Positions 4,776 to 15,500 of a stretch of DNA of 64,000 bases are shown piece after piece. The notes below the pieces were generated by a model, which was given only the letters and a program-made list of their open reading frames with translations, did not search any database and was not told where the DNA came from. The stretch is taken from NCBI GenBank assembly GCA_964507565.1, contig CAZDPV010000002.1, positions 24,879 to 88,878 on the forward strand. Direction: 5' to 3'. The position numbers and the translations under genes are program-made. The stretch is from an uncultured Clostridium sp. GTDB taxonomy: Bacteria; Bacillota; Clostridia; TANB77; CAG-508. Within the stretch, counting starts at the first letter, position 1. Each line of letters begins with the position of its first letter.

Positions 4776-6182
4776 GTGAGAAAACTTGCATCAGGAAATA
4801 AAATAAAGTTTATAACATTTTCTATAATAATAATAATAATAATAGCAATATTCTTAGCTTGTTTAAAGATTGTATTAGGACTACAAAAAGAAGAATACTT
4901 ATTAGAAAGTGGGACATTTATTTATGACAATGAAAATACTCCAATTAGTATTGAAAATGAAGCAAAAATGCATGAAAAATGGAATGGAAGCTACTATTTA
5001 AAAATAGATAATGCACAAGAAAGACAAGAATATGATTTAGGAGGGCAAGTAGTTGCGTATAAGTCAAGGAAAAGAATGATTGATTTATACGGTAAATTCT
5101 ATCAAATCGACTTAGATGGAAATGTTACAAAAAGTGAAGGTTACACTGAGATAACAGATACATCTAAGGATGCTCTCTATAAATTAAATGACAGAAAATA
5201 TTTGATTATAAGTAATAATATAACCAATCAAACTCAATCATTAAATACAAAAGACTATCTTATTGTTATACTTGATAAGGCAGGAAATGCACTACTTCTA
5301 AACAATGAACTGAACTCAAAAACAATCAAACCAATGATTATTTCAACTAATTCATTTAAGTTAGATGTTGCAAATGAAAAGTTAATATACAATGGAAACG
5401 AAATAGACTTAAAGAAAATACTAGGCAGTACAAACCAATACAAGGAAAAGATCAAAGTAGAAAATGCAACAAACAATATAAAAGAAGAAACTGGAGAAAC
5501 AATTGGAGGAACGACAATATCGAACAATCAGCAAACGACAACTGTTCAAGTGCCAAATGCATCAACAGGTGGAGATAATAGCTCATCAGATAATAAAAGT
5601 AATACGCAAGAAATATTACCCAAAAGCGTAACACTAAAAGGAATTTCAGTTAATTCGTCTTATGTAGATATTGATTATTATATAATTGATCCACAGGGGA
5701 AATATCAAACAGTATATTTATTAGTAGAAGGTGACATAAGCAAAACTATAGCATTAGATAAATCGAAAACAACTTATAGAGTAACGGGACTAACGCAAAA
5801 CACTGAATATAAAATAACATTAGGTTCTAAAGAGACAAAAAAGTCTGGAGAGATACTAGACATAATTGAGGATGTAGTTAATATTAGAACATTAAAGAAT
5901 AATTCACAAATATCAATTACTAAAGTTGGAATAGATAAAATATATTTTAATCTAAAAATGGATAACAGCTATATAATAGATTCTGGAAAAGTTGCATTAT
6001 ATGTTGATGGGCAAAAAATATCATCTACTCCAATAAATATAGAAAAATCAGTAACAGATGATGGCTGGAGTTCAAGTATTGATTATAACTATGGAAATGA
6101 AATAATCCTAAAATTAGAAGATACAGTTTACAACGGAAAAAAAGTTGAAATGAATATTTCAACCAAAATTAAAAATTATTAA
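4776..6182 (+). CDS. Single-pass membrane protein with extracellular FN3-like domain
   Basis: GTG start lies 6 nt after GGAGG (4765-4769). N-terminal TM is [25 protein letters not shown]. An S/T/N-rich linker is followed by the FN3-like signature [19 protein letters not shown]. The gap to the upstream gene is only 20 nt. Confidence 0.75.
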
Positions 6183-6196
6183 ATAAGGAGGATATT

Positions 6197-6445
6197 ATGG
6201 AAACAATTTTGGCAGCAACATTAAATTGCATAGGAATTATGTTAGGACTAACATTCTTAGGATTTGGAATAGGTATAGGTATTTTAGGCTCAAAGGTTGC
6301 AGAGGCAGTTGGAAGAAATCCAGAAACAAAAAGTGATATCATTCATTCAGTAATGACAATACTAATTGTTTTAGCAATATTTTTACTATTACTATTTGCA
6401 TTTGTATTTTTACTATTATTCTATAATCCATTAACATTACAATAG
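6197..6445 (+). CDS. atpE: F-type ATPase c-subunit-like proteolipid that lacks the conserved ion-binding carboxylate
   Basis: The 82-aa protein is a two-helix hairpin. Helix 1 has the glycine packing motif [10 protein letters not shown], and the polar loop GRNPE matches the conserved RQPE/RQPD loop. Helix 2 ([28 protein letters not shown]) contains no Asp or Glu. The position 17 residues after the loop Glu, equivalent to E. coli cAsp61, is Ala60. An AGGAGG-type RBS sits upstream, 14 nt after the previous stop. Confidence 0.75.
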
Positions 6446-6492
6446 ATAGATAAAATATAAAAAGTCTAATGCTATTTTACAGGAGAAAAAAT

Positions 6493-11744: not shown

Positions 11745-12459
11745 TAAAACATCACAAAATGCTTTAATAAAAGATATTGTCATAAAAATAGTATTAGTAT
11801 TATTACTTCTAGATGTAATATTTATTGCAATATACTATATCAAACAGCTAAATACAACAGAAGTAGAAAATCATAGCTTCTATCAATACTTAGGTGGTCA
11901 AAAGCAAAGTTATGCAGGAAGTATTAAAATAAGCAAAAACGGTGATATAACAGAATTAAAATGTAACGATATTGAAATCGAATTAGACTCAACACCAGTG
12001 TATTATTCAGATATAGAAAATACCGCAATATTACCAGAACAAATGTCAATTATTTATCCAAAAGAAAATGGAAAAACATATAGAACAACAAGATTCTCTA
12101 TATGCTCAATAAAAGACAAATCTGTGTATATTGAAATGAGTAAAAGCGAAAAATTAGTGCAAAATGCAATTCTATATGATGGAGATAATTTGTATTTTTT
12201 TATAGAGCAAACAAAGCTAATGATTGGTAATAAAGAGTATGATATTTCACCATTATCTTATGTATATGCAAAATACAATGAATATGTAGAAATTTATGAT
12301 AAGAAAAGTGATACATTTCAAGTGGTAGAATGTGCAAAAAAGAATGTAACAGCAAGCAATGGCTCATATATAATAGACTTAAACACAGGCAGTTTAAAAA
12401 ATGGAGAAAAAGAACAGCTATTACTTAAAAAGTTTAATTCATTAGAAATTTTAAAATAG
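11728..12459 (+). CDS. Single-pass membrane protein, unknown function
   Basis: ATG follows AAGGGAG and overlaps the previous gene by 17 nt. The N-terminal TM is IVIKIVLVLLLLDVIFIAIYYI, followed by an extracytoplasmic domain of about 200 aa. Confidence 0.6.
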   Translation: MKKIANKTSQNALIKDIVIKIVLVLLLLDVIFIAIYYIKQLNTTEVENHSFYQYLGGQKQSYAGSIKISKNGDITELKCNDIEIELDSTPVYYSDIENTAILPEQMSIIYPKENGKTYRTTRFSICSIKDKSVYIEMSKSEKLVQNAILYDGDNLYFFIEQTKLMIGNKEYDISPLSYVYAKYNEYVEIYDKKSDTFQVVECAKKNVTASNGSYIIDLNTGSLKNGEKEQLLLKKFNSLEILK

Positions 12460-12505
12460 ATTTTAAAAATTGCGTATATGAAATTCTAAATCAGGAGAAC
12501 TAAAA

Positions 12506-15500
12506 ATGAATAAAAATGAAATAAAAGATAAACCAAAATTACATAAAAAAGGTAAAATAGCAAATCTAATAAGAAGCAATATACCAATGTTTCTAATAGT
12601 ATCAATTGGGCTACTAATAATATTATTAGTGGCACTTTATTATATATTTATGCACTTTGCTCCAGTATATGTAATCGAAAAAAGTGGATATGCAGTAAAG
12701 GATAAATTAATATATCAAGGATTACAGACATCAAATTTTAGTAGTGCAGAAAAACGAGTTAGCCTATTAGAAATTTCAGAAGAAGATACTCTATACAAAA
12801 AAATAAACAGTTATTATATTGGTGGAAATAGTAAAAAAGCTATAAACTTAAATTATCCAATATATTTAGAAGATTCAGCAATGCTAAATTTAAGTAAAGA
12901 AATGAATTTGATCACAAATTCTTTTGAAGAGGTAGGAGGATATCCAAATTTTACAATAATAGATGGAAAGATGTATAATGAAAAAGATTTAACAAGAGCA
13001 GATAGCAATGAATACATATTTCTTAAAAATAAAGAGAATTTGTTTGTAAATATTAAAGAAATATATATAAAGACTTCTACAAATGAATATAAAATACCAA
13101 TAAATAGTATTATAAATTTTAACAAAGAATTTGTTAGTTATTATAAATTACAAGACAAAGATAACTTAGAATATAGTGTAATACAAGATATAGACTTAAG
13201 TAGTATAATTACAATAAATAATGAAAGTGATAATTATGAAAATATATTAAAGAAACTTAAAATTATACAAGAAGAAAAGAAACAGGATGTAATTGTAAAT
13301 GAAATAGAAGAACCTGTTAAAAATGAAACACCCAAAAATGAAATAACGGAAAATAAAGAAGAAGAAAAAACGGACGATGAAGAAAAAAAATATATTGCTC
13401 CAGAAGTAAAATGTACAGACTTTACTGCAAATGTTTATACTGCAAAGACGAATTTATATATAAGTGACCCAAGCGGAACGATTCAAAAAGCAGTAGAATT
13501 TACAATATACAAAGATGGTAAGGTATATCAAAGAGCTCAAACTTTAGTAGGAGGAAACATTTTAATAAGTGGACTAATGCCAGATTCAAAATATTCAATA
13601 ACAGGAGAGTACACATACAAAAAAGAATCAGGAGAAAAAGTAATAAAAACATTTTATGAAGGTACGTTTAATACCAATAGATTAGAAACACTAGAAACTA
13701 TAAATTTGGAATTTGAGAATGGAGAAATATTTCCAACAAAGATTGAAATAAAAGATTTAAAAATAAATAATGATTTATATAATGACGAAGTTTTATATGG
13801 AATATCAAAAATAGTATTGGATACAGGAAAATCTAAATATAATTTAAGAGCTTCACAAATAAAAGAACTACTAAATGGAAATAAAATAACATATCAAACC
13901 GACCAAAATATAACAAGTAATAGTAATATAAAATATAAATTCCATATATATGATAAATTTGAAAATGAATTATCAGTCTCAAATAGTGAAGGGGAAACTA
14001 TAACTTCAAAAAGAGCTCCAACTTTAGTATTAAATGCAAAAAGTCAAAATATAACAGAAGTAAATGTAGGAATTAAAGTTAATAACAAGGATAACGTTAT
14101 AATAGAAAACTATAAATATGCTATATACGATGGGGAAGGGAAAGAAGTAGAAAGCCAAAACTTAAAATCATTACCAAGCGAAATTAAGATAAGAGATCTA
14201 GACCCTAATAAATTCTATGTAATAAAAATATTTGGAGATTATGATTTGGAAAACAATCAGGGAAAAACATATAATGTTGAACTGGGGGAAGCAAAATTTA
14301 CGACGTTACCAATATCTTCACTAGGATATGTATACATTGATGATAACTTAAAAGATATAAAAAGTAACCAAACAACAATTTCTATAAAAATAAATACTGA
14401 AAAAACTGATACTAGATTGGTAGAAATATTATCACAATTTAATATAAAAATAAAATCAAACAAAGATAATAAAGATACTCAAGACTATAACTTATCAAAC
14501 GAAGACCTTCTCAAAATAAAGCAGGGAAATGAATTTGAATACATATTCCAAAATCTAAATTCTAACACTAAATATTCTATTGAAGTAGAAACGAGGGCAA
14601 AACAAGGAGCTTCAACGGAAAAAGTAGGTGTAAATTTCGAGATAACGGACTTTATTACACTTAAGGAATCTGCTAGTGTACAAATTAAAAATCAATTTGT
14701 TACAGGAGAAATAATAGATTTTGATGCAAAAATAGTAGATAAAGATGAAGCTGTTTTAAATAATTCTGTACGTATGGAATTAAGGGACGAAATGGATAAG
14801 CTACTATCAATAGAAGATATGAAAACAAATGAAGAATATAAAAGAGAGACATTCAATAAATTGAGTAGTGGAAAAACATATAAAATATTATTTTACGCTG
14901 ATGAGTATAATGAGGGAAGTAAAGATGATACATACAAATCAAACTATCTTCTTAAAAAAATACAAGTTGTTACTGAGGAGGGGATAAGTGGAAATTTAAG
15001 ACTAAGTGAACTTAATAAAAAAGAAAACGGAAAAAATCTAATTGATATGGCTTCAGAAGTAAAATGGTATGTATATCCAAATTTTGACACAGGAGACTGG
15101 TATGGAAAAGAGTATAATGAAGTAACAGAAACATTGTCAATTGGAGGACATGGAAACAGTAGAAGATGTGTATATGACTTAACAGATTATTCAGGACAAA
15201 CTGTAACGATGTCTTTTAAGGCAAAGCGTATTACTAAGAACTCAAGCACTCTATATATTCAAAATGCAAGAACAGATAAAAATAGAACAATAGTTAGTGA
15301 CATAAATGAAACAGAATGGAAAAGTTATTCATATACCATAAAACTTGATGAAAGTGGATACCTTGGCTTTTATGTACAAGGTGGTGATGGAGTTCAAATA
15401 AAAGAATTACAGGTTGAACTGGGATCTAAGCAAACTCCATATCAAAAATATAAATATAATATGAGAACTAGATTACAAGTAAATTTAATTGACAAAAGAA

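Follow-up and report, generated by a model that had tools for sequence, protein, structure and literature searches.

The DNA analysed here is a 64,000-nucleotide (nt) stretch, referred to below as the window, from an uncultured Clostridium sp. (assembly GCA_964507565.1, contig CAZDPV010000002.1, positions 24,879 to 88,878 of the forward strand). Positions 175-21562 of the window (+) are occupied by one co-directional gene string that runs from a 1526-amino-acid (aa) repeat protein through a giant surface protein of 3018 aa and encodes, between these two, an F-type ATPase. Three proteins of the string, p468, p243 and the giant, are membrane-anchored at their N-termini and are the subject of this report. 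We conclude, with a probability of roughly three in four, that p243 is a paralogue of the giant's N-terminus and shares with it an all-beta juxtamembrane domain whose homologous core is approximately 130 residues long. The genes in question and the extent of the shared core are as follows, TM denoting a predicted transmembrane helix.

4776-6182, + strand: p468, N-in single-pass membrane protein (open reading frame [ORF]; family of 104 orthologues), with TM at residues 12-36 (nt 4809-4883, from sequence), a conserved N-domain at 37-225, a T/N/S-rich linker and an fn3-like C-terminal part
11728-12459, + strand: p243, the free-standing copy of the module, with a basic tail, TM at residues 17-38 (nt 11776-11841) and a predicted all-beta ectodomain at 42-243
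11965-12375, + strand: residues 80-216 of p243, the core of the module shared with the giant (hhalign aligned range)
12506-21562, + strand: giant surface protein of 3018 aa (ORF; Pfam), with TM at both ends (residues 26-51 and 2982-3001), the N-terminal module at 52-255, an E/K-rich linker, fn3-like repeats and a GLUG motif
12830-13231, + strand: residues 109-242 of the giant, the core of the module shared with p243 (hhalign; p243-profile HMMER in the same register)

A preliminary description of this DNA had proposed that each of the three proteins opens with a short basic tail and a single TM helix, then a non-repetitive stretch of about 150-200 aa, and that there may be a common membrane-proximal domain. 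The layout, with a non-repetitive stretch of about 200 residues, is borne out in p468, p243 and the giant by the ORFs and their hydrophobic segments, and AlphaFold2 (AF2) models place helices at residues 3-41 of p243 and 28-49 of the giant. Pfam and NCBIfam searches returned nothing for p243, for residues 1-365 of the giant, for the N-terminal half of p468, or for p189, p283 and p97, three further proteins of the string; in p468 as a whole the one Pfam match is weak and to fn3. No additional copies of the module were found within the window, and no internal repeats were found in the ectodomains.

The description had further paired two sequence blocks by eye. The first is p243 90-109 (nt 11995-12054, PVYY...) with giant 118-136 (nt 12857-12913, PIYL...), and the second is p243 154-175 (nt 12187-12252, NLYFFIEQ...) with giant 178-199 (nt 13037-13102, NLFVNIKE...); a weaker echo was noted in two p468 peptides, which we locate at residues 141-148 and 157-164. 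Pairwise BLASTP of the single sequences gave E = 1.6 for p243/giant, 1.2 for p468/giant and 0.19 for p468/p243, and Smith-Waterman scores against 500 composition-matched shuffles gave z = 0.02, -0.44 and 0.77 for the same pairs. Composition-matched shuffles were the yardstick that the description itself had named, and for single sequences its claim fails by that yardstick, every score lying within the spread of the shuffles. Chance-level pairwise scores would also be expected if p243 and the giant were not homologous at all and their resemblance had been produced by AT-biased composition together with beta-hairpins repeating about every eight residues.

Comparison at the level of protein families gives a different result for p243 and the giant. 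Profiles were built from the loci described below and from representatives, to depths of 127 sequences for p243, 181 for the N-terminus of the giant and 104 for the N-terminal part of p468. Full-length hhalign comparisons with the TM included gave probabilities of 32-66% for all three pairs, with every score above those of whole-alignment column shuffles; we discarded these scores as evidence because the control is too lenient, the TM helix also being destroyed by the shuffling. In a stricter null the tail and TM columns were kept fixed and the ectodomain columns alone were shuffled. The TM helix adds approximately 11-15 hhalign score units, enough to account for the p468 signals, and the mean of this TM-kept null is approximately 29-30; p243/giant scored 38.7 against 29.7±1.8, with 0/60 shuffles reaching the real score.

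Using the ectodomains alone and the deepest profiles, p243/giant scored 29.5 (P 6.9e-4, 110 columns) against a column-shuffle null of 13.7±2.5 with a maximum of 21.5 (z = 6.5). These shuffles preserve composition and none of the 100 reached the real score, which argues against a purely compositional origin of the resemblance. The same conclusion is favored by natural negative controls drawn from the same AT-rich operons, in which nine other families (the C-terminal half of p468, three pieces of the 1526-aa protein, four pieces of the giant and the b-like protein) were compared with each of the three profiles; the 27 hhalign comparisons scored between 7.7 and 23.2. The p243/giant score also increased as the profiles deepened, from 21.6 to 27.0 to 29.5.

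The hhalign alignment passes through exactly the two blocks noted by eye and at lower stringency covers p243 80-216 and giant 109-242. The best-conserved positions of the two families coincide in it and are identical: P90/P118 (conserved at 100% in p243 and 99% in the giant), S177/S201 (100% and 94%) and Y190/Y213 (100% and 92%). Two further pairs among the top-conserved positions, F148/F172 and Y134/Y157, are likewise coincident and identical, while Y92/Y120 and Y156/[YF]180 are conservative matches. Coincidence of near-invariant P, S and Y residues again counts against a by-product of composition and hairpin periodicity. In this way the likeness of the two blocks, absent between single sequences, is present at the family level with both blocks in the same profile register, and the HHalign check that the description had proposed places p243/giant above both column-shuffle and natural controls.

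HMMER provided a second line of evidence. A hidden Markov model (HMM) of the p243 ectodomain matched 16/181 giant N-ectodomains at E<0.01, the best at 20.7 bits (E 2e-6), compared with maxima of 9.1 bits for shuffled and 8.8 bits for reversed giant sequences, which is difficult to reconcile with composition alone. The register of these matches equals that of hhalign over about 130 positions. HMMER does flag a high composition bias in the cross-family matches, as would be expected without homology, and an hmmsearch of all locus ORFs with the family HMMs gave zero cross-family matches with default filters and TM-level noise alone with --max.

Predicted structures were compared for the same two regions. 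The AF2 model of p243, built on a 33-sequence alignment, shows a long TM helix and, after it, about 21 short strands (predicted local distance difference test score [pLDDT] 89.3, predicted template modeling score [pTM] 0.79), and that of giant residues 1-275 has the TM helix, about 20 short strands and two short helices near the membrane (pLDDT 81.6, pTM 0.73). Along the sequence-derived alignment the three-state DSSP assignments of the two models agree at 77% over 109 columns with approximately 13 strands in register, and this value, at zero shift, is the maximum across shifts of ±12. A secondary-structure-only alignment scored 138 against an element-shuffle null of 111±10, with 2/300 shuffles reaching the real score; as an independent confirmation of the register it was rejected, having chosen a slipped one. 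Because agreement remains high at a shift of ±8 and the secondary-structure-only register is slipped, the models support the same architecture class for p243 and the giant, not residue-level equivalence. Foldseek found no meaningful match in the PDB as a fold counterpart for either model (best E 0.12), and the p243/giant module is a new domain family without a Pfam, NCBIfam or PDB relative.

The genomic setting of the module is conserved. Scanning one genome per species gave 124 loci, of which 80 were retrieved; all come from metagenome-assembled gut genomes with the labels Clostridia, Bacilli, Tenericutes or Erysipelotrichaceae, and these hosts use the standard genetic code. Across the loci (L001-L160) the gene content of the operon is strikingly conserved and occurs in two orders. 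In type 1 the order is surface protein, p468-like, c, b-like, alpha, gamma, beta, epsilon, 5-TM, p243-like, giant, and in type 2 it is surface protein, p468-like, p243-like, c, b-like, alpha, beta, epsilon, 5-TM, gamma. A p243 gene, encoding a protein of 213-250 aa, is present in every related operon and always adjoins a gene for the membrane sector, either the 5-TM protein or c. In type-1 loci p189, the 5-TM gene, is kept immediately upstream of p243; in the window the end of p189 and the start of p243 overlap by 17 nt (11728-11744), an arrangement suggesting that translation of the module protein is coupled to that of the a-like membrane subunit. A p468-like gene was found in 59/63 loci having enough upstream sequence, and in type-2 metagenome loci it lies directly 5' of the p243-like gene in 73/80.

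The giant is the more variable element. In 33/68 loci the p243-like gene is followed immediately by a giant with the N-module, and in the remainder the operon ends at p243 and a housekeeping gene comes next. An exhaustive profile search placed the giant N-module family at 418 clusters at 50% identity; among the best 150 of the 418, nearly all are proteins of 2800-4400 aa with the module at the extreme N-terminus.

Two Logan assemblies (L164:2158-4591 and L165:1237-3670) have a p243-like gene of 254 aa followed by a chimeric ORF, P0040, in which the first 103 residues of a giant N-module are joined to the C-terminal half of an ATPase beta subunit, with epsilon-like and 5-TM genes next. The arrangement resembles an operon copy that has been rearranged or has decayed, though it may be an artefact of assembly.

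Several observations weigh against a shared p243/giant domain. Similarity between the single sequences is at chance level by both BLASTP and Smith-Waterman. The hhalign probability for the pair is 27-66%, varying with TM inclusion, and the two ectodomains cannot be aligned over their first 40-60 residues. The model of the giant was limited to 7 sequences because a word-indexed protein search with the 35-sequence giant-N alignment gave just 5 fragments. When shifted by ±8 the DSSP strings continue to agree at 0.61-0.68, and the register picked by secondary structure alone is slipped by about one strand (offset 11-16, not 24-28). Operons that have no giant indicate in addition that p243 is not dependent on the giant's copy. 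The structural points and the hhalign probabilities, all below 70%, would fit two unrelated strand-rich proteins of similar composition, but the column shuffles, the control families from the same operons, the shuffled and reversed giants, the coincident near-invariant residues and the gain of signal with profile depth are not accounted for in that way, and we consider absence of homology very improbable. What the analysis shows is the homology of p243 and the giant N-terminus, their predicted topology and architecture, and the conserved synteny.

A broader possibility is that p468, p243 and the giant all share one juxtamembrane domain and that p468 has diverged past sequence detection. The three proteins have the common layout of tail, TM and about 200 residues, p468 and p243 co-occur nearly always, and shallow hhalign comparisons with the TM included reached 63% for p243/p468 and 32-45% for p468/giant. 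One of six profile-sequence tests was weakly positive (the p468-family HMM against p243 sequences, p 0.001). A crude propensity predictor averaging over the alignment, which attains a three-state accuracy (Q3) of 0.69-0.70 when checked on the two AF2 models, assigns 15 short strands and an all-beta character to p468 37-240, resembling the other two proteins. Against this, p468 scores at the null level under each of the stricter comparisons: with the TM kept, p468/giant scored 28.9 and p243/p468 31.2, both inside the null (z 0.1 and 0.6), and with ectodomains only and deeper profiles p468/giant scored 17.1 (z 1.1) and p468/p243 14.5 (z 0.1). The early p243/p468 hint was lost as the profiles deepened, and the three pairwise alignments are mutually inconsistent outside p468 residues ~74-96, with offsets of 14-47 residues. 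Conserved motifs of the p468 family, namely KKWdGnYYL, FYKLADRKYLI, FDIANEKL and EIDLKKIIGSTNEY, have no counterpart in the p243 and giant families. A three-way domain is thus unlikely, although less so than absence of homology between p243 and the giant. The echo that had been noted in p468 does not rise above chance (ectodomain-only hhalign 14.5-17.1 against a null of about 14±3), and the proposed common membrane-proximal domain is supported for p243 and the giant, through profile similarity, invariant residues and predicted architecture, but not for p468. As judged from sequence, the N-domain of p468 is a separate, strongly conserved family without detectable similarity to the p243 and giant modules; given its all-beta prediction, it may nonetheless have their fold.

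The cytoplasmic tail of p468, MRKLxxGNK (window 4776-4808), is highly conserved in sets of 47-104 orthologues, with M1 and R2 at >=90%. The tails of p243 and the giant are unlike it, being variable in both length and sequence. Conservation of the p468 tail hints at a specific cytoplasmic contact of this protein.

The other genes of the string are listed below in order.

175-4755, + strand: repeat protein of 1526 aa, encoded first in the operon; orthologues are approximately 600-1900 aa
6197-6445, + strand: c subunit, F-type (PF00137)
6469-7320, + strand: p283, b-like single-TM coiled coil of 283 aa, without a Pfam or NCBIfam family
7347-8696, + strand: alpha (PF00006)
8674-9477, + strand: gamma (PF00231)
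9470-10828, + strand: beta (PF00006)
10866-11159, + strand: p97, epsilon-sized, 97 aa, without a Pfam or NCBIfam family
11175-11744, + strand: p189, 5-TM membrane protein of 189 aa in the position of a reduced a-subunit, without a Pfam or NCBIfam family

From its first ATG the 1526-aa repeat protein has neither a visible N-terminal TM helix nor an obvious signal sequence.

The ATPase is F-type but atypical. Compared with PDB sequences, beta matches canonical F1 beta at 1e-117 and the Mycoplasma mobile G1 beta (9io5_A) at 3e-96. The c subunit retains the cytoplasmic RNPE loop, but the residue 13 after the loop, at the ion site in the middle of the second TM helix (mid-TM2), is Leu, and an acidic residue at this site is absent in all 57 orthologues. 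The only conserved acid on that side of the c subunit is D47, four residues past the loop, which is present in 57/57 orthologues. This suggests a c-ring that may be unable to carry H+ or Na+ in the canonical way, and the features of the ATPase would fit a mechanical role over an ion-pumping one.

The simplest history of the module would be tandem duplication of the core subunit p243 followed by fusion to the giant, or the reverse. Each protein would present an N-in single-pass anchor followed by a ~200-residue all-beta ectodomain, and the module may act as a membrane-proximal foot that joins p243 and the giant into one cell-surface complex. The other parts of this complex would be p468 and the membrane sector (the c-ring and the 5-TM protein) of the ATPase. 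Docking of the module to the ATPase/5-TM part is plausible and compatible with the tight, conserved synteny. Because p243 is universal, adjoins a membrane-sector gene and nearly always occurs with p468, while the giant is optional, the giant is, as far as synteny can indicate, a less likely conserved partner of the module than p468, the membrane sector of the ATPase, or both. The giant's own copy may take a site equivalent to that of p243, or may pair with p243, and ATP-driven movement of the motor could thereby be relayed to the giant surface protein.

We tentatively extend this to a surface machine of gut Firmicutes driven by a rotary ATPase, in which an ion-blind c-ring would be used for mechanical work and a p243-type foot would tie the doubly anchored giant to the motor. 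Such a machine, as yet undescribed, would be an analogue, derived from a canonical F-type operon, of the energisation of M. mobile gliding and of MIB-MIP; we hold it to be possible but doubtful. A search of the literature for such an operon outside mycoplasmas found no description and nothing relevant.

The analysis defines a new extracellular domain family comprising at least 418 giant-form clusters at 50% identity together with stand-alone proteins of about 240 residues, and reveals that a core subunit of the operon has a copy in a giant surface protein that is itself optional. It sets p468 apart as a distinct component and offers a concrete, testable hypothesis for how the giant may be attached to an atypical F-type ATPase that is widespread in uncultured low-GC gut Clostridia and Bacilli.

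Several known systems are comparable to this operon. Its order c-b-alpha-gamma-beta-epsilon is like that of the canonical bacterial F1Fo ATP synthase operon (atpBEFHAGDC), with clear Pfam matches for c, alpha, gamma and beta and with the P-loop and GERSREG motifs present. It differs from the canonical system in that the a subunit, the b family and delta/OSCP are not recognisable by Pfam or NCBIfam, in that its c subunit is without the mid-TM2 carboxylate, and in that the operon also contains genes for three single-pass surface proteins and for a repeat protein of secreted type. The occurrence of one domain both in a small free-standing protein and at the terminus of a giant neighbor is like the general phenomenon of paralogous anchor domains and fits tandem duplication and fusion; compared with the general case of an anchor shared between a small subunit and a large adhesin, the module here differs in matching no Pfam, NCBIfam or PDB entry.

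The closest described precedents come from mycoplasmas, in which F1-like ATPases energise either gliding legs or the MIB-MIP antibody-cleavage system (PMC12994834, PMC11864180): the Type 2 G1-ATPase of M. mobile with Gli123, Gli349 and Gli521, and the Type 3 F1-like X0 ATPase with MIB-MIP (PMC12994834, PMC11864180, PMC3369863). The mycoplasma clusters have seven genes including a 12-TM protein, and the c subunit is absent (PMC12994834), whereas the operon described here encodes c together with a b-like and a 5-TM protein; because of the 12-TM protein and the missing c subunit in those clusters, this operon falls outside Types 2 and 3. It differs also in its beta subunit, which is nearer to canonical F1 beta than to G1, and in its hosts, which are gut Clostridia or Bacilli known from metagenome-assembled genomes and using the standard genetic code. 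Sequence kinship of p243, the giant N-module or p468 with a mycoplasma protein did not emerge, although no search aimed at it was made. Like the mycoplasma systems, it encodes an F1-derived alpha/beta/gamma/epsilon motor together with very large membrane-anchored surface proteins, and the role proposed for the motor, relaying ATP-driven movement across the membrane to extracellular effectors, is the same. If the ATPase does drive these proteins, the powering of surface machinery by an F1-like motor would extend beyond the mycoplasmas.

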